From Escherichia coli (GTDB lineage Bacteria; Pseudomonadota; Gammaproteobacteria; Enterobacterales; Enterobacteriaceae): a stretch of DNA of 9,233 bases. The notes under the pieces were generated by a model. The model searched no databases and had not been told where the DNA came from. It worked only from the letters and a program-made list of their open reading frames with translations. Below, one piece after another: positions 1 to 9,233 of the stretch (its first letter is position 1; every line of letters begins with the position of its first letter). Both the position numbers and the translations under genes were made by a program. The stretch lies in assembly GCF_003334255.1 (NCBI RefSeq), contig NZ_QOWU01000090.1; one strand, given 5' to 3'.

Positions 1-76
1 AGTTATCGTGAGAGTAATTCATCGGCACGTTAAATCATATCAGGCGTAATACCACAACCCTTAAGTTAGCGCTTAT

Positions 77-96
77 GGGGGGAAGTCCCCCTTTTT
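77..96 (+). terminator. Rho-independent terminator closing a + strand unit lying left of the window
   Basis: G-run 77..82, loop AAGT, C-run 87..91 (5-bp all-GC stem), followed directly by TTTTT 92..96. Confidence 0.5.
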
Positions 97-106
97 AACG
101 TCATTT

Positions 107-154
107 TATGCAGGGAATGTGTAGTTCTACACAGATTCTATGCAGTATCGGTAT
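107..154. repeat. Compound repeat: TATGCAG (107..113), perfect 16-bp palindrome TGTGTAG-TT-CTACACA (118..133), TATGCAG (139..145), TATCGGTAT (146..154)
   Basis: Read directly from the sequence. Further same-orientation TATGCAG(G) copies at 219..225 and 469..475. A given 7-mer is expected less than once per strand in 9.2 kb. Confidence 0.7.
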
Positions 155-4011: not shown

Positions 4012-4040
4012 ATAATATCATGTAAATGAGATGTTGACAA
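4012..4040 (-). promoter_or_regulatory. Sigma70 promoter for the 61-aa membrane protein
   Basis: - strand TTGTCA (4040..4035), 17 nt, TATTAT (4017..4012). Its -35 overlaps the -35 of the divergent + promoter. Confidence 0.55.
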
Positions 4041-4062
4041 TATGTTAAATAAATGTTAAGAT
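4034..4062 (+). promoter_or_regulatory. Near-consensus sigma70 promoter of the 4099..5374 operon
   Basis: TTGACA (4034..4039), 17 nt, TAAGAT (4057..4062). It is overlaid by three tandem 11-bp repeats: ATGTTGACAAT, ATGTTAAATAA, ATGTTAAGATT (4031..4063). Confidence 0.65.
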
Positions 4063-4098
4063 TGTAGTATGAGTAAGAGATTTAAGGAGATTTTTACA

Positions 4099-4389
4099 AT
4101 GACTCACACAGTTACGCGCCTTTTGCCAGAGGCATTTGAACGACTGGCAGCAATCAAAGCCAAATATCCCGATATGAAGCACACAGCGCTTGTTGCAGAG
4201 GTTTTAAAAGAGCCGGTAGACTTGACCCCTTTCGATAACGTTAAGGGCGTTGCAGAGGGTTCTAAGGCCATCAGAATCACAACGGGCCAACTGGAACTAC
4301 TCAAAGCACAGTCCGCAGTAGCAGGTTGCTCAATGATTCAGGTCTTAAGCGCAAAGGTTCATCAATTAGCGGATAAGCTGGGGGTTTAA
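4099..4389 (+). CDS. Small DNA-binding-like protein with two tandem ribbon-helix-helix-like segments
   Basis: SD AAGGAG (4083..4088), 10 nt, ATG 4099. The ORF track starts at ATG 4069, which coincides with the predicted transcription start. TVTRLLPEAFERLAAIKAKYPDMKHTALVAEVL and AIRITTGQLELLKAQSAVAGCSMIQVLSAKV each fit a strand-helix-helix pattern. This was judged by eye only. Confidence 0.6.
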   Translation: MTHTVTRLLPEAFERLAAIKAKYPDMKHTALVAEVLKEPVDLTPFDNVKGVAEGSKAIRITTGQLELLKAQSAVAGCSMIQVLSAKVHQLADKLGV

Positions 4390-4814
4390 TGCTATGTACA
4401 TTTGATTATCATGCGTTTTATCGACATAGAGGTCATCTTGTCCGTGAGAATAACGGAACATGGAAAGATTTAACTCGTAATGCTGAACCCTTCACACACC
4501 AGCAATTAAAATCCCGCTTCTCCAGATGGAAGAATGCACCAGCAGATACTGGTGATTTTGAGATTATCCATACCTTCGATTATGCCTCAGAAGATGACCT
4601 TCACGATGCAATTAAGCTGATTGAAGACTTCAATACCTCAGAAAATGTGGATGGTGACAAATATAAATCCCGTGGTAACCGCTATAACCGTGATGATATC
4701 ACTCAGGCCATAAATGCTGGTCAATCTCAGCGATACATTACAGAAAAATATGGTATTTCACGGAGACAGTATTTCTACGTTAAATCATTGATTAATAAAG
4801 ACAATTCAAAATAA
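4389..4814 (+). CDS. Hypothetical 141-aa protein with a C-terminal resolvase-type HTH
   Basis: ATG overlaps the upstream stop (TAATG). The C-terminus DDITQAINAGQSQRYITEKYGISRRQYFYV resembles HTH_7. The N-terminal ~100 aa are unrecognised. Confidence 0.6.
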   Translation: MLCTFDYHAFYRHRGHLVRENNGTWKDLTRNAEPFTHQQLKSRFSRWKNAPADTGDFEIIHTFDYASEDDLHDAIKLIEDFNTSENVDGDKYKSRGNRYNRDDITQAINAGQSQRYITEKYGISRRQYFYVKSLINKDNSK

Positions 4815-4820
4815 CCATCT

Positions 4821-4920
4821 CAGTAACGGTAGAATGCACTTTACAGGCAGAGTTGCACCTTAATTTGATAAATTACCTTACCAGCCAGTGCAACTCCCTC
4901 TGTAACCCGCATGGTTACTG
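4821..4920. other. 100-nt imperfect long hairpin / cruciform-capable element
   Basis: Nested arms: CAGTAAC 4821..4827 / GTTACTG 4914..4920; ATGC 4834..4837 / GCAT 4909..4912; TTACAG 4841..4846 / CTGTAA 4900..4905; GAGTTGCAC 4850..4858 / GTGCAACTC 4888..4896. That is 26 bp in total, with a 29-nt AT-rich apical loop. Confidence 0.6.
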
Positions 4921-4973
4921 GCCTCAGAATGGCTATTTTAAGAGGTCTGAGATGTGTTTTAGAGGAATTTAAA

Positions 4974-5297
4974 ATGAGCAATTACGAATTACAGATTTTC
5001 GTTGATAACGACACCGCTATGATGATTCAGGCTTTCAGTGATTCCGGTGTATCAATTGATTTTGACAGGCTGTTAAAGCTGATGGCTGATAATGCAGAAA
5101 ACATCTCTGACTTTATTCAGTCGGTGGAGTTTAACGAGCCTCGAATGATGCTACCAATTACCGACTCAAACATGAAAAGATTGGTTATCGAGCAAACGAA
5201 CAAACACAGTATTTCCCCAGAGCAATTTTTGAAAGGTGCTGTGACAATCCTGCACAGCGATAATATTCTGGTGACGGATTCTATGAGGGTTCACTAA
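4974..5297 (+). CDS. Hypothetical 107-aa protein
   Basis: SD GAGGA (4963..4967), 6 nt, ATG 4974. The longer ORF start at 4911 lies inside the hairpin element and has no RBS. The C-terminal MLPITDSNMKRLVIEQTNKHSISPEQFLKGAV is weakly RHH-like. Confidence 0.6.
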   Translation: MSNYELQIFVDNDTAMMIQAFSDSGVSIDFDRLLKLMADNAENISDFIQSVEFNEPRMMLPITDSNMKRLVIEQTNKHSISPEQFLKGAVTILHSDNILVTDSMRVH

Positions 5298-5374
5298 TGG
5301 GATTGATAATTGCTTGGACAGCTTTAGGTTTATTTGTTGGTTGCTGGGTGGGCAACACAGTAAATAAGAATTGA
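5297..5374 (+). CDS. Possible 25-aa hydrophobic peptide (MGLIIAWTALGLFVGCWVGNTVNKN)
   Basis: ATG overlaps the stop of the preceding gene (TAATG, the same coupling as two other junctions in this window). One clean transmembrane-length hydrophobic stretch with a basic/polar tail. It is too short for statistical support. Confidence 0.3.
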   Translation: MGLIIAWTALGLFVGCWVGNTVNKN

Positions 5375-5406
5375 TGTTACCAATCTGTTAAAAAGCTGTT
5401 GACAAA
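5374..5406. promoter_or_regulatory. Three tandem 11-bp TGTT repeats ending on the -35 box
   Basis: ATGTTACCAAT 5374..5384, CTGTTAAAAAG 5385..5395, CTGTTGACAAA 5396..5406. The same unit and phase occur at 4031..4063. Confidence 0.55.
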
Positions 5407-5427
5407 TAACCTTAAGCATGGCATAAT
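5399..5427 (+). promoter_or_regulatory. Near-consensus sigma70 promoter with no adjacent conventional gene
   Basis: TTGACA (5399..5404), 17 nt, CATAAT (5422..5427). A second -10-like TATATA follows at 5430..5435. Confidence 0.65.
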
Positions 5428-5433
5428 TGTATA

Positions 5434-5652
5434 TATGAGGATAGTCTTCTATCCGAAGTCTATAGGAAGAGCAATTTTTCCTAAAATCATATTTTCAATA
5501 ATCCGATGGATGGATATTCTGAGTTGGAAAGGTGCAATGCTTTTCGTCATGGCCTTTCAGTTTAGTCTGAGAGGTCATCTCAAAAAGTGCTTAATCATTC
5601 ATTATTGAACCCTTACAGCTTTGCCCTAACTCATGATTAGGGCGTTTTCTTT
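5434..5652 (+). ncRNA. Candidate ~0.2-kb structured short transcript (promoter to first terminator); alternative reading is a leaderless 57-codon ORF at 5435..5608
   Basis: It is bounded by the promoter above and terminator T1. Hairpins: GGATAG-TCTT-CTATCC 5439..5454; TAGGAA-N9-TTCCTA 5463..5483; GAAAGG/CCTTTC 5527..5558; TGAGA-GGTCA-TCTCA 5568..5582. No SD-preceded ORF is present. An ATG at 5435 sits at the predicted +1 and opens MRIVFYPKSIGRAIFPK... (rich in ATA/AGA codons). Confidence 0.35.
5623..5652 (+). terminator. Intrinsic terminator T1
   Basis: GCCCTAA (5623..5629), 7-nt loop, TTAGGGC (5637..5643), then GTTTTCTTT. Confidence 0.65.
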
Positions 5653-5721
5653 AAGAGTTTTGAAACAGAGCTTTTAAAGAAAGTTTTCCTGAAACTTCGT
5701 TAACGTTATAAGCAAACCTTC

Positions 5722-5757
5722 AAAGCCCTTCACAGATTATGTTTAGGGCTTTTCTTA
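5722..5757 (+). terminator. Intrinsic terminator T2 (3' half nearly duplicates T1)
   Basis: AAAGCCCT (5722..5729), 15-nt loop, AGGGCTTT (5745..5752), within the T-rich run TTTTCTT (5750..5756). Confidence 0.55.
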
Positions 5758-5842
5758 ATAGAGCATCTTTAATAAATCGTTAAGTCATCTTCTAAGTGTA
5801 TTGGCGTTGAAGGTGCTCTATTAAGAAATAACCACACTTAGA
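5754..5842 (+). promoter_or_regulatory. Leader with two interleaved inverted repeats reaching the RBS of the 5854 gene
   Basis: CTTAATAGAGCA 5754..5765 / TGCTCTATTAAG 5814..5825 (12 bp perfect). TCTAAGTGT 5791..5799 / ACACTTAGA 5834..5842 (9 bp perfect); its 3' arm overlaps the start of the SD GAGGA 5841..5845. Confidence 0.45.
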
Positions 5843-5853
5843 GGAAAAAAATA

Positions 5854-6564
5854 ATGACAAACGATATTTACATTAATGGCAAAGTGATTGATAGCTTCGG
5901 TGACTGGTCACCACAGACTGAACATCCAGCTATCGCTATTCAGCGCAAAGAGCACGATGCGAGAATTGCACTTGAGCAATCGCTAAAGATGACACCAAAG
6001 GAAATTACCTTTGTGGCTCCTGAACCTCAAGAGATGCCCGATATTGGCAAAACTGAAGCATTATTTAATCTTGAGCGCGAATATTACCCACAGTTAAAAG
6101 AACAGCGCCTTAGATTAGATGACGCTTACAGCAAAGTTACCTTGATGCAATCAGCTATTGAGCCGTCAGAATTTGAGATTCAGGATGAATTGTCACAGAA
6201 ACCATTTGTCTATTACCAATACGAAGACAATGATGGTTTTGGTACTTTTCCAGAAAACATCACAGGCGTGATTAGTAGTCTTCCTGATGGATATCGAATT
6301 GTGAAGATGGTTAAAGCTTCAAGAGGTGCTGGTCAGTTTATTTACATGACCAATAAGAGCGATGAAGAACTCCGTGAAATTGCCAGACAGAACATCTTGG
6401 CATCACGTAACAAGCAACTTGAAAATGTTAAGTTGTATCTCTCAAGAGAGCTTCAGGCTATGAAAGAGCTTGTTAGTGAATATGAGTCGCAGAAGAAGAT
6501 TGCTATGCAAGCCGATATTGAGCAGCTTACGAAGATTTCTCAGAAGTATAGCAAAGCGATTTAA
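5854..6564 (+). CDS. Hypothetical 236-aa protein with a coiled-coil-like C-terminus
   Basis: SD GAGGA followed by an 8-nt spacer before the ATG. Long ORF with even, gene-like composition. The C-terminal ~70 aa are K/E/Q/L-rich (NKQLENVKLYLSRELQAMKELVSEYESQKKIAMQADIEQL). No family was recognised. Confidence 0.7.
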   Translation: MTNDIYINGKVIDSFGDWSPQTEHPAIAIQRKEHDARIALEQSLKMTPKEITFVAPEPQEMPDIGKTEALFNLEREYYPQLKEQRLRLDDAYSKVTLMQSAIEPSEFEIQDELSQKPFVYYQYEDNDGFGTFPENITGVISSLPDGYRIVKMVKASRGAGQFIYMTNKSDEELREIARQNILASRNKQLENVKLYLSRELQAMKELVSEYESQKKIAMQADIEQLTKISQKYSKAI

Positions 6565-6823: not shown

Positions 6824-6866
6824 GGGAGAGATTATCGAGTGATATCGGTAGTTTCTCCCTTTTTTG
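6824..6866 (+). terminator. Intrinsic terminator after the 5854..6796 gene pair
   Basis: GGGAGA (6824..6829) pairs with TCTCCC (6854..6859). A short inner CGA/TCG pairing is possible. A TTTTTT run follows at 6860..6865. Confidence 0.5.
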
Positions 6867-6872
6867 TATGTG

Positions 6873-6915
6873 TGCTACGTGAAATCTTCTGAACAGATAT
6901 ACCCACCAAAAATTA
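6873..6915 (+). repeat. 43-bp direct repeat, copy A (promoter-like module upstream of the tape-measure gene)
   Basis: TGCTACGTGAAATCTTCTGAACAGATATACCCACCAAAAATTA. It is 36/43 identical to copy B at 9112..9154, and 25/27 over the first 27 nt. It contains TGAACA-17-TTATTT. GCTACGT 6874..6880 is inverted at ACGTAGC 6922..6928. Confidence 0.7.
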
Positions 6916-6956
6916 TTTTTTACGTAGCTCACGCTTAAAGAGGTGAAAAAATATGA

Positions 6957-9023
6957 ATGGCACAATTTAAAGTTGATGATTTTCTGATTGAGCTAGGTTT
7001 TAACTCTCAGAGGGTTTTAAAAGGTCTGGAAAAAGCCGAGAAACAAACGATGCAGGTAGCATCACGAATTGAGAAGCGATTGAATAAAGCTTTTAAAGTT
7101 AACCCTACGCCTTTAAATGATTCTCTCAAGGTCATGGAAAGAAATGTCGATAAAACTGTTTCCAAGATTGAGCAGCGTCTTAAAAACACTAAAGCGTTTA
7201 AGATTAAAACGGAAATTGAGGATACTTTAAAGCCACTTAGACAACCGAGACAGCCACGAATTAGCGGAAGCAGAGCAATTACAGCAGCGCATAGCGTGAA
7301 TATGAGCAAGCTTCGTGACTTTAATCCTATGCTTGAGAAGTATTTTAAAAGCCAGTATTACAGCTTAAGCAGTAAATCCAAGACACTTGGAAACGAAGCT
7401 TTTAATCGTGAGTTAGCAAAATTAAATCAATCTCTTCGTGAAACACTTTCTAAGTTTAACAAGACCACCAGCAAAAATAATCACAGTGAAAATGCTTCGA
7501 ATGGTCTGGATGTATTAGCTACGAGTGCAATCAAAGCAGGTACAGCCATTTATAGTTTTCAGACAGCCTTAGAAGCTTACAGGCGGATTATGGAGGTTGG
7601 TCTGAAAAAAGAAGCATCACAACGAGCGGCACAATTCGTTTTAGGTGATGAAGGTGCTAAACGAGCTACAGAATTTGTTAAGAATCTTGCTGATAGTAGT
7701 GGTGTAGACCAGATTGAAACATTAAGCAGTTTTGCTAAGTTTTCCGCTGGTGCTGGTGATATGAATGCAGACCAGAAAGAATCCTTATTTTCTAATGTGA
7801 TTGGTACATCCAGATTAATGGGGCTAAGCACCGATGAAATTAACGGGATTTTAAAAGCTTTCGAGCAGATGGCATCTAAAGGAAAGATTCAGGCTGAAGA
7901 GCTACGCGGTCAATTAGGTGACAGAATGGCAGGTGCTTTTCAGTTATTTGCCAGAAGTCTTGGGATGACTACGGAAGAATTAGACAAGGCTATGAAAGAC
8001 GGTAAGGTTCTTTCTAAAGATGTTCTCCCTAAAGTATCCGCTGAAATGGGAAAGATGATTGATAAAGCGGGAGGATGGGAAAAGATTATTAACTCTACTC
8101 AGACGCAGTTAGGCCGCTTAAGTAATTCATGGAATAATAATTTGGCCTTAATGTTCGATGGTTCACAGGAAGGTTTAACAGACTTTACAAGGTCACTGAC
8201 TAATTTACTTAATTCACTGGGTGGTCAATCTAAAAATCTTGGTGAACATTTTGGCGACTTGATGAAAAGCATGTCAAACGGTATTGATGATTTAACCACG
8301 ATTAGCTACCGAGTGCAGGGATTCTTTGACAGAGTGACCCTTGCTTACAGAGAATTAAATGACACTCAAAAAGCTGTAGCTGATGGTATCGCAAATGGCC
8401 TGTTAAGTGCATTAAAGGGACTTGCTGGTATTGTCGCTGTAAGGTCTGGTATTGGTGCTGTAGGTGGTATCTGGAACTTAATTAGGGCTATTTCCACGCT
8501 TGGGAATGTAGCAAATACAGCAGCAGGAAGAATTAATTCACGTTCTGGTGGTGTTGAAAGTGGAAAAAGTAGGCTATCTGTAGCTGATGCAATTACCAGA
8601 GTAATGATTGTCGGTATGACAACTGATGTGATTAATGCCATTGTCAAACCGTTCTATGAACGTCAGATGAGTAAGTCAGATAATCCGATTGATAAAGTTG
8701 TAAGGTCAAAGGTGGAACCCACAGACCAGGCATTAACTGGTGACATGAACTCTTTAGCCGCTGTTTTATGGGCTATGGTTCATGGCAAATCAAAAGATGT
8801 TCCACAGTTTTCACCTGAAGCATTAAATAATCTAAAAGGTCGAGTGGAAACATTCACACAAGATTTAAAGGTTATCAAGCCGTCAGTAAATATTCAGCCT
8901 CAGACAATCAATATCACAACTCAGACGGTACTTGATGGAAAGGTTATTGATGAAAGAACCACATCGCATATTAATCGTATGCAGGAAGATACCTTGATTA
9001 GCTCAGCTTACCCAGAGGAATAA
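6957..9023 (+). CDS. Phage tail length tape-measure protein
   Basis: 688-aa ORF. The core ...LMGLSTDEINGILKAFEQMASKGKIQAEELRGQLGDRMAGAFQLFARSLGMTTEELDKAMKDGKVLSKDVLPKV... is the conserved tape-measure block (TIGR02675-like). The N-terminal third is K/E-rich and helical. Gly/Ala/Ile-rich hydrophobic segments (GIANGLLSALKGLAGIVAVRSGIGAVGGIW) are typical of the family. SD GAGGTG lies at 6940..6945. Confidence 0.88.
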   Translation: MAQFKVDDFLIELGFNSQRVLKGLEKAEKQTMQVASRIEKRLNKAFKVNPTPLNDSLKVMERNVDKTVSKIEQRLKNTKAFKIKTEIEDTLKPLRQPRQPRISGSRAITAAHSVNMSKLRDFNPMLEKYFKSQYYSLSSKSKTLGNEAFNRELAKLNQSLRETLSKFNKTTSKNNHSENASNGLDVLATSAIKAGTAIYSFQTALEAYRRIMEVGLKKEASQRAAQFVLGDEGAKRATEFVKNLADSSGVDQIETLSSFAKFSAGAGDMNADQKESLFSNVIGTSRLMGLSTDEINGILKAFEQMASKGKIQAEELRGQLGDRMAGAFQLFARSLGMTTEELDKAMKDGKVLSKDVLPKVSAEMGKMIDKAGGWEKIINSTQTQLGRLSNSWNNNLALMFDGSQEGLTDFTRSLTNLLNSLGGQSKNLGEHFGDLMKSMSNGIDDLTTISYRVQGFFDRVTLAYRELNDTQKAVADGIANGLLSALKGLAGIVAVRSGIGAVGGIWNLIRAISTLGNVANTAAGRINSRSGGVESGKSRLSVADAITRVMIVGMTTDVINAIVKPFYERQMSKSDNPIDKVVRSKVEPTDQALTGDMNSLAAVLWAMVHGKSKDVPQFSPEALNNLKGRVETFTQDLKVIKPSVNIQPQTINITTQTVLDGKVIDERTTSHINRMQEDTLISSAYPEE

Positions 9024-9111: not shown

Positions 9112-9154
9112 TGCTACGTGATTTCTTCTGAACAGATACCAACATCAAAAATTA
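9112..9154 (+). repeat. 43-bp direct repeat, copy B
   Basis: TGCTACGTGATTTCTTCTGAACAGATACCAACATCAAAAATTA. It is followed after 2 bp by the IS end. Confidence 0.7.
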
Positions 9155-9156
9155 GA

Positions 9157-9233
9157 TGAACCGCCCCGGGTTTCCTGGAGAGTGTTTTATCTGTGAACTC
9201 AGGCTGCCAGATCATTGTTTCCGATGGAAGCAT
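9157..9233 (-). mobile_element. Right end (IRR plus end of orfB) of an IS629/IS1203-like IS3-family insertion sequence, continuing beyond the window
   Basis: From 9157 the sequence reads TGAACCGCCCCGGGTTTCCTGGAGAGTGTTTTATCTGTGAACTCAGGCTGCCAGATCATTGTTTCCGATGGAAGCAT. From memory this is the reverse complement of the IS629-type right end (TG...CA termini, IR TGAACCGCCCCGGG). G+C jumps abruptly relative to the flanking DNA. Confidence 0.85.
9199..9233 (-). CDS. IS3-family transposase OrfB, C-terminal fragment (truncated by the window edge)
   Basis: The reverse-strand frame reads ...ASIGNNDLAA then stop (tca 9199..9201 on +), matching my recollection of the IS629 OrfB C-terminus (...YYASIGNDDLAA). 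Confidence 0.7.
   Translation of the reverse strand, partial: ASIGNNDLAA

Follow-up and report, generated by a model that had tools for sequence, protein, structure and literature searches.

The stretch of DNA analysed here, 9,233 nucleotides (nt) of Escherichia coli contig NZ_QOWU01000090.1 (assembly GCF_003334255.1) and referred to below as the window, makes up most of an integrated island which, from a comparison with its relatives, is ~11.5 kb long. Between an upstream operon (4069-5374) and the late operon that carries the tail genes of the island is a gap, 5375-5853, that is unannotated in all RefSeq relatives. On the evidence of sequence comparison this gap encodes a structured leader RNA that forms a new and well-supported family with clear covariation, absent from Rfam, and that carrier strains probably transcribe in abundance. 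A strong promoter precedes the RNA and predicted terminators follow it. Our best reading, to which we would give a little less than an even chance, is that the region acts as a termination gate ahead of the late (tail-gene) operon, similar to that formed in lambda by PR′, 6S RNA and tR′.

The leader is a structured RNA

Thirteen relatives of the region were retrieved by BLAST or protein similarity without using the RNA sequence, and exact-match scans with the 20-mer GAAAGGTGCAATGCTTTTCG added about 110 further loci; pooled, they give 100 distinct leaders. As the scanned loci were retrieved with that 20-mer, its invariance among them is by construction, from which the 13 independent loci are exempt. 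Five divergent elements were reached through distant homologues (30-40% identical) of the 236-amino-acid (aa) protein that is encoded directly behind the leader. Protein-based retrieval from one-genome-per-species contigs gave two loci only, so that the set owes its diversity to E. coli genomes, metagenomes and the look-ups with divergent homologues. A search by BLASTN for homologous loci with covarying stems had been proposed in an earlier note on this DNA, which was made from the sequence alone, and such loci and such stems were both found. The conserved helices of the leader are the following.

5464-5482, + strand: P1, a conserved 5′ hairpin, with 38 sequence versions that all fold (z = -4.3)
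5527-5545, + strand: P2, a hairpin, GAAAGG[UGCAAUG]CUUUUC, lying inside a 20-nt block (5527-5546)
5549-5578, + strand: P3, a 12-bp helix between 5549-5560 (AUGGCCUUUCAG) and 5567-5578 (CUGAGAGGUCAU), with a 6-nt loop

The 20-nt block around P2 is invariant in the main clade, including the 13 relatives that were retrieved without it, and in the divergent elements L125 and L132, where the stem is changed to GUAAG/CUUGC, the loop UGCAAUG is retained. P1 covaries between GGAGAG/CUCUCC, AGAGAG/CUCUCU and GGAAGAG/CUCUUCC, with G·U pairs in addition, while P3 occurs in 27 sequence versions, each of which forms 9-13 bp when folded by itself. When P2 and P3 were aligned with a covariance model (48 distinct rows), 98.1% of the cells were paired and double changes were seen at 7 pairs, a result that none of 500 shuffles equalled; slid controls gave 40-63% paired cells and at most one pair with a double change. 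Such an alignment leans towards structure, whereas the per-sequence folds of P3 do not. The frequent changes from G-C to G-U in P1 and P3 would be A·C mismatches on the complement, which places the RNA on the + strand. No match was found in the region with Rfam at E ≤ 1, nor did a full-text literature search for the core sequence of the leader give one.

This fold differs from that of the earlier note, in which the stems at 5527-5558 and 5568-5582 had been mis-paired. The two tight hairpins proposed for the start of the transcript (5439-5454 and 5464-5482) do fold as described, but they are not a conserved pair, since the first belongs to a sporadic insertion.

5437-5463, + strand: 27-nt hairpin module GAGGAUAGUCUUCUAUCCGAAGUCUAU, in which 5439-5444 pairs with 5449-5454; inserted sporadically, at this position in 17 of 100 leaders

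A module of 27-30 nt with the signature GAGGAU...AUCCGAA is seen at three different leader places across the elements. Copies lie at 5437-5463 in the window, before P2 (L002, L012), in the loop of T2 (L001, L005, L008) and, inverted, in the loop of T1 (L124), T1 and T2 being the terminators described below. From this distribution the module seems to behave like a miniature mobile palindrome or a movable protein-binding hairpin. A census of the module beyond the leader, made with a regular expression, was uninformative, the pattern being too loose.

It would be almost certainly wrong to see in the gap an ordinary small protein gene followed by a terminator. The window does hold an ATG-started open reading frame (ORF) of 57 codons (5435-5608, listed in the ORF table of the window in a TTG-extended form, 5399-5608), but its ATG lies inside the sporadic insertion. 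Among the 100 leaders the ATG ORFs in this frame vary from 5 to 80 codons, with 57-58 codons in four of them, the other frames hold no conserved ORF, and the indels of the leader are not multiples of three. The ORF has no family match in Pfam or PHROGs. As the ORF is not conserved, and as the substitutions preserve base pairing, we take the region to be an RNA and not a gene; the small-protein reading, which the earlier note had named as one that would undo its own, was rejected on the lack of conservation.

A strong promoter with phased upstream repeats

5375-5401, + strand: phased direct repeats TGTTA (5375), TGTTA (5386) and TGTTG (5397), spaced by 11 nt, the last overlapping the -35 element
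5399-5427, + strand: sigma70 promoter, TTGACA-17-CATAAT with a TG extension, 11/12 matches, the best promoter-like site of the window

Both the promoter and the repeats are near-invariant among the 13 independently retrieved relatives. In the divergent elements the promoter is retained as TTGACA-17-xATAxT, and the TGTTA repeats are kept in L125, L131 and L132. The near-consensus promoter picked out in the earlier note therefore holds up well, both in its match and in its conservation across relatives, and the repeats suggest a candidate binding array for a DNA-binding regulator. The start site is predicted at about 5433-5435. The promoter scan found no other sigma70-like site on the + strand in 5428-5853 or 6860-6957, and no RefSeq relative has an annotated gene within 5375-5854, in agreement with the earlier placing of the next convincing start at 5854.

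The hexamer TATATA at 5430-5435 had been put forward as a sigma70-dependent pause element. It lies 3-8 nt past the -10 element and therefore spans the predicted start site, outside the initially transcribed region, and it is not conserved, being replaced by TGTATATAT, TTTAATTAT or GGTAATA in relatives. Of the 100 leaders, 75 have a -10-like hexamer at +20 to +29, as compared with 71% of composition-matched shuffles. Given a frequency no higher than in the shuffles and its absence from 25% of the leaders, the pause element was rejected.

Predicted terminators in front of and within the late operon

5622-5652, + strand: T1, predicted intrinsic terminator, stem 5622-5629 with 5637-5644, then UUUUCUUU; found by the terminator scan (free energy -10.7 kcal/mol)
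5646-5682, + strand: post-T1 hairpin between the T1 U-tract and a downstream A-rich segment, with 17-nt arms that are 82% complementary; a duplicate of helix I (see below)
5722-5756, + strand: T2, predicted terminator, AAAGCCCU/AGGGCUUU with a 15-nt loop, then UUUUCUU (free energy -14.3 kcal/mol, z = -4.0)
6824-6865, + strand: T3, very strong predicted terminator, 15-bp stem, 6-nt loop and U6 (-23.6 kcal/mol, z = -6.2)

An RNA that ended at T1 (~5650) would be about 218 nt long and one that ended at T2 (~5756) about 322 nt. T2 was missed by the terminator scan because of its 15-nt loop. At the place of T2 every relative shows a GCCCU...AGGGC hairpin with a U-rich tract behind it, and none of about 100 leaders is without such an element; two are usual, and a single fused copy is seen in some, as would be expected from recombination between the duplicates. 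T1 itself is present in most relatives and absent or fused in others. The twin terminators with near-duplicate 3′ halves that the earlier note described are thus real, but two are not universal and some relatives have a single one. Further afield, the promoter of L129 (protein 30% identical) is a perfect TTGACA-17-TATAAT with two unrelated GC-rich terminators behind it, and in L131 (37% identical) four to five hairpin-plus-U elements were read by eye from the sequence; in both, the first terminator is about 30-60 nt past the start. The T1 and T2 hairpins also occur in both orientations, with the loop reverse-complemented and the arms the same (L003, L004, L008 and others; row s65), and these variants appear to be small palindrome inversions.

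The terminator scan gave the upstream operon 4069-5374 no terminator of its own, and T1 and T2 sit at its end. When the leader was read by eye no upstream complement of the 5′ arm of T1 was seen, and a riboswitch-type antiterminator for T1 was rejected for this reason. With no alternative pairing for this arm, factor-dependent read-through fits better than control of the riboswitch type.

T3 separates the gene for a 71-aa protein from the tape-measure gene. It is found in 64 of 64 distinct variants, in which the stem sequences differ and the pairing is kept, at 27-127 nt ahead of the tape-measure ATG. Where this distance is only 27-39 nt there is no room for a downstream promoter, so the tape-measure protein would have to be expressed by read-through. 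The presence of T3 in every variant, at times so close to the ATG, suggests that read-through is part of the design of the operon.

Two probably competing helices between T2 and the first late gene

5751-5828, + strand: helix I, arms 5751-5772 and 5807-5828, the 5′ arm starting in the T2 U-tract (minimum free energy -37.3 kcal/mol, z = -6.7)
5788-5845, + strand: helix II, pairing an anti-Shine-Dalgarno (anti-SD) sequence UCUUCUAAGUGU (5788-5799) with ACACUUAGAGGA (5834-5845), which includes the SD sequence GAGGA (5841-5845); interleaved with helix I

Helix I forms with 21-28 bp in 75 of 75 variants (median about -34 kcal/mol), which fall into three to four covarying sequence types. The pairing of helix II is found in nearly all of ~104 leaders, with 50 distinct arm pairs and a mean of -17.2 kcal/mol as against -9.8 kcal/mol for shuffles, and it is reached through four sequence solutions (UCUUCUAAGUGU/ACACUUAGAGGA, CUCUUCUAAG/CUUAGAAGAGG, UUCACCUCU/AGAGGUGAA and UUUCCUAUU/AAUAGGAAA). 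The interleaved repeats noticed earlier therefore both exist and both covary, though the one given as 12 bp in fact has 22-nt arms.

The 3′ arm of helix I is 5 nt from the arm that holds the SD, and the anti-SD is placed close to the tip of helix I, which exceeds 20 bp; from this geometry the two helices could hardly coexist. In the minimum-energy folds helix I dominates, and roughly one variant in two has its SD unpaired, with a median cost of 0.9 kcal/mol for opening it. A simple lock of the SD is not supported by these folds. On this folding model the segment behind T2 is a two-state leader and not a plain lock. A helix of 21-28 bp is long enough for RNase III, and helix I may be a substrate of this enzyme.

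Part of the 3′ arm of helix I (5813-5826), UGCUCUAUUAAGAA, with UGCUUUUUAAAAA at its place in type-B leaders, is loosely boxA-like when compared with the boxA of rrn operons, UGCUCUUUAACAA. The likeness could be due to chance, since this arm must complement the terminator tail.

A proposed termination gate ahead of the tail genes

In the termination-gate reading, the very strong promoter at 5399-5427, which may be controlled through the three phased TGTTA repeats, would give rise to a structured non-coding leader consisting of P1, P2 and P3. Most polymerases would stop at T1 or T2 and free a stable small RNA of about 218 or 322 nt. Those that go on would build helix I from the tail of T2, and the competition between helix I and helix II would then set the translation of the 236-aa protein. 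T3 would have to be passed before the tape-measure and Dit genes were reached. The expression of the tail genes would in this way be gated by terminator read-through, the trigger for which would probably be a factor from the early genes of the island or from a helper phage. We infer all three of the efficient termination, the conditional read-through and the existence of an antiterminator.

The order of promoter, short RNA, one or more terminators, interleaved helices and SD is kept in the divergent elements, in which the homologue of the 236-aa protein is 30-40% identical, and in L129 this layout is built from wholly different sequences. As in a lambdoid checkpoint, a strong promoter is followed by an intrinsic terminator within about 0.2 kb, with late genes downstream. 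The read-through checkpoint had been the central proposal of the earlier note. Its promoter, structured RNA and terminators have stood, and the lack of a recognisable internal promoter and the conservation of the layout support it, but its pause element and its put-like pair of hairpins have not stood.

A number of observations weigh against such a gate. T1 and T2 also end the upstream operon and could be simply its terminators, shared with a small RNA. Part of the family lacks T1, and in type-B leaders the U-tract of T2 is interrupted (UAUUCAGUUUUU). The proposed pause element is unsupported. No antiterminator was recognised with Pfam, PHROGs and NCBIfam: none of the ORFs of the window or of the relative L003 is recognisably of the Q family or N- or Ogr-like, as the earlier note had also found, distant structural similarity not having been compared. 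At 15 bp the stem of T3 is as long as that which made a terminator resist processive antitermination in one tested system, TerR of pLS20 (PMC10325885). The invariant block of P2 and the covarying P3 appear to exceed what a by-product RNA would need, and argue that the RNA acts itself. Of weak relevance, a catalogue of small RNAs of O157 obtained by Hfq crosslinking has no entry labelled SpLE2, an island of O157 that may be this one.

Alternative explanations

The most serious rival, though we consider it somewhat unlikely, is a stand-alone trans-acting small RNA (sRNA). The 5399 promoter would make a P1-P2-P3 RNA and T1 and T2 would be its own terminators, shared with the upstream operon; that they do end this operon is what gives a plain sRNA gene its weight. 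The RNA would regulate host, helper-phage or element mRNAs or would sequester a protein, while the operon of the 236-aa and tape-measure proteins would be transcribed from a separate helper-dependent promoter, invisible to a sigma70 scan. The anatomy is that usual for enterobacterial sRNAs, with its own promoter, no conserved ORF, a 5′ protective hairpin in P1, the strongly covarying P3 and an AU-rich stretch ahead of a terminator with a U-tail. An Hfq-type sRNA would be expected to have a conserved single-stranded seed; here the most conserved block, which does not vary within the main clade, lies in part in a hairpin loop, and this loop is kept when its stem changes. There are also precedents in StxS, which is terminated at tR′ (PMC7547250), and in SviR of the PLE satellite (bioRxiv 10.1101/2022.04.08.487710). 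However, no conserved CAUUGC partner with which the UGCAAUG loop might kiss was found in the elements, and the targets in trans predicted by RNAduplex inside the window were noise only. L129 and L131 are without P2 and P3 yet keep the promoter, the terminators and a structured leader. No promoter-like site is seen downstream of T2, and T3 would still have to be read through. The Hfq-crosslinking catalogue, if SpLE2 is indeed the island, also speaks against an sRNA. Tandem repeats of 30-40 nt of the antitoxin type (type III toxin-antitoxin, ToxIN-like) were not found, 5390-5870 containing two short two-copy direct repeats.

The RNA may instead act on the polymerase that makes it. We think it quite unlikely that P2 (with its loop UGCAAUG) and P3 form a new cis-acting antitermination RNA, or a loading site for an undescribed antiterminator from the island or from a virulent Felix O1-like helper, by which T1, T2 and T3 are read through. 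If true, processive antitermination would take place here by a system with no relation to N, Q, put, RfaH/ops or conAn, in an undescribed E. coli satellite family with its own tape-measure and distal-tail genes. A put-like form of this, in which P2-P3 reads through T1, T2 and T3 in cis without a protein and the terminators merely insulate the tail genes, is decidedly unlikely. The put RNAs of HK022 are about 70 nt long, form two stem-loops directly behind PL or some 270 nt past the PR start, need no protein and suppress distant terminators (PMC9378689). P2 and P3 are likewise two adjacent conserved stem-loops, of about 55 nt, that lie about 95 nt past the start and upstream of all three terminators; they include an invariant sequence block, and no antiterminator protein was recognised. 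However, the best hit of a P2-P3 covariance model in positions 22,000-40,751 of the HK022 record scored 11.7 bits (E = 0.57). In L129 and L131 the first terminator, so close to the start, leaves no room for such an element, and the model has no match there. Transcripts of the upstream operon also carry P2-P3, because of which the insulation would fail on the upstream side.

An immunity RNA like P4 CI or C4, in which a piece of the leader would pair with sites repeated along its own transcript and thereby cause termination or prevent translation, is very unlikely. The invariant block, GGUGCAAUGCUUUU, does resemble the 3′ arm of helix I (GGUGCUCUAUU or GGUGUGCUUUUU), 7-8 nt of it might base-pair with AAAAGCAU or AGAGCAU of the 5′ arm, and the island is satellite-like, as is P4. 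Nevertheless, the pairing of the 20-mer, at -12.3 kcal/mol, was no better than that of shuffled 20-mers (-11.2 +/- 1.6 kcal/mol), and pairing with the 5′ arm of helix I was rejected for this reason. The region has no match at E ≤ 1 in Rfam, in which C4 antisense RNA is family RF01695, and the genes behind the gate are structural and not for replication. A site that acts as DNA, for packaging, as an origin or for recombination, is hardly probable at all. It would draw on the many palindromes and on the HNH endonuclease that some relatives encode two genes upstream of the gap, HNH proteins being companions of cos sites in HK97-like phages. Set against it are the G·U pairs, tolerated on the + strand only, the promoter and terminator syntax, and the lack of iterons in 5390-5870.

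Comparison with known systems

The PR′ promoter of Stx phages is always active, its transcripts being terminated just downstream in lysogeny, and the short RNA so formed works as the sRNA StxS (PMC7547250). The region described here shares with PR′-6S/StxS-tR′ of lambda and Stx phages a strong and apparently constitutive sigma70 promoter, an RNA of ~0.2 kb, an intrinsic terminator and structural genes behind it. Unlike those systems it has no Q homologue, no supported pause element and no similarity in sequence or in Rfam. It differs from lambda PR′ also in its covarying helices and invariant block, in having one to five terminators and one more inside the operon, and in its host, which is a satellite-like island and not a lambdoid phage.

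With put of HK022, P2 and P3 (5527-5578) share two adjacent stem-loops that follow a promoter and precede several terminators, with no recognisable dedicated protein. No homology was seen in the part of the HK022 record searched (22,000-40,751), however, and there are distant relatives that have terminators but no P2-P3. The put RNAs act via the zinc-binding domain of the polymerase beta′ subunit; the likeness of P2-P3 to them is one of architecture. Operons with multiple terminators are read by processive antitermination in conjugative elements, where the terminators are thought to curb spurious expression (PMC8191782). The conAn system of Gram-positive conjugative elements resembles the island in being a mobile element with a long operon, internal terminators and a leader RNA element at its start. 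The phylum is different and no ConAn1-like protein was recognised here, so that the link is one of logic only.

In the N-leader of lambda, nutL and an RNase III-sensitive hairpin control the translation of N. There, as here, a long hairpin is located just upstream of the SD of the first gene and alternative folds decide access to it. The leader of the island has no boxB, however, and has of boxA only the loose likeness mentioned above. Among satellites, SviR of the Vibrio cholerae PLE and the CI RNA of P4 are small RNAs that regulate satellite and/or helper genes, without sequence relationship to the leader; the PLE is like the island in having a large serine recombinase and a tape-measure protein related to those of virulent myoviruses.

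The island is present in about 9% of complete E. coli genomes and is apparently undescribed, and the control region is the obvious place for a switch between its silent and active states. Whatever opens the three successive terminators, once shown, would reveal how the island senses its helper phage and could extend the short list of antitermination factors and RNAs by a new one. On a more modest reading there would still be a new structured RNA family.

The host island

The leader region (query 5375-5860) was found by BLASTN in 471 of 5,426 complete E. coli genomes, O157:H7 among them, always on the chromosome and with an identity of 66-99%. With megablast the whole window matches complete E. 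coli genomes with a coverage of 68-76% and an identity of about 90-94%. In relatives the island is inserted within yecE (DUF72) or in the yciI-tonB interval. Its genes are ordered as follows.

Early part: small serine invertase, Dam methylase, helix-turn-helix protein resembling a Rep initiator (or an alternative early module), small unknown proteins
Middle: conserved 107-aa protein and a translationally coupled hydrophobic peptide of 25 aa, then the unannotated gap of 390-570 nt
Late part: 236-aa protein, ~70-aa protein, tape-measure protein, Dit-like protein, large serine recombinase

The tape-measure and Dit-like proteins are its only virion genes. Small, integrated and equipped with an integrase, a replication initiator of its own and some virion genes, the island has gene content of the phage-satellite type. 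It looks like a phage satellite and is a candidate for a new satellite family; literature searches for the island as a satellite found no paper that describes it. In the metagenome contig L065 (11,233 nt) the two ends overlap directly over 55 nt, which makes it circular, the only one of 21 contigs to be positive in this test, and contig L127 is circularly permuted, with the recombinase adjoining the first gene. Together these contigs suggest that excised circular copies of the island exist.

In the source contig the island is cut by insertion sequences ahead of the Dit and recombinase genes. The ends of the window (1-125 and 9146-9233) match repeats in thousands of E. coli chromosomes, plasmids and Stx phages, which are annotated as IS3/IS629 family, IS421 and hokD neighbourhoods.

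Neighbouring genes

5854-6564, + strand: gene of the 236-aa protein, the first behind the leader; a coiled coil and a small alpha/beta domain, narrow family
6957-9023, + strand: tape-measure protein gene (PF20155, phrog_4036), followed in relatives by a Dit-like gene and then a large serine recombinase

The 236-aa protein has no match in Pfam, PHROGs or NCBIfam. Its AlphaFold model (predicted local distance difference test score, pLDDT, 79) consists of a long coiled coil and a small domain, without a significant fold match in the PDB. The label 'transposase' that many of its homologues carry in RefSeq is unsupported by Pfam, NCBIfam, PHROG or fold match. Along its entire length the tape-measure protein shares 28% identity with its counterparts in Felix O1-like virulent myoviruses.

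Directly upstream of the gap an ORF of 25 codons (5297-5374, + strand), MGLIIAWTALGLFVGCWVGNTVNKN, overlaps the stop codon of the 107/128-aa gene through TAATG and is unannotated everywhere; relatives have a second version, MELVIICFVLIGMIAGASIKV, which is different but equally hydrophobic. Further upstream, between a 61-aa gene on the - strand and the operon that starts at 4069, there are overlapping divergent promoter-like sites (4012-4062), TTGACA-17-TAAGAT on the + strand and TTGTCA-17-TATTAT on the - strand, both with TG, which together look like a switch region.

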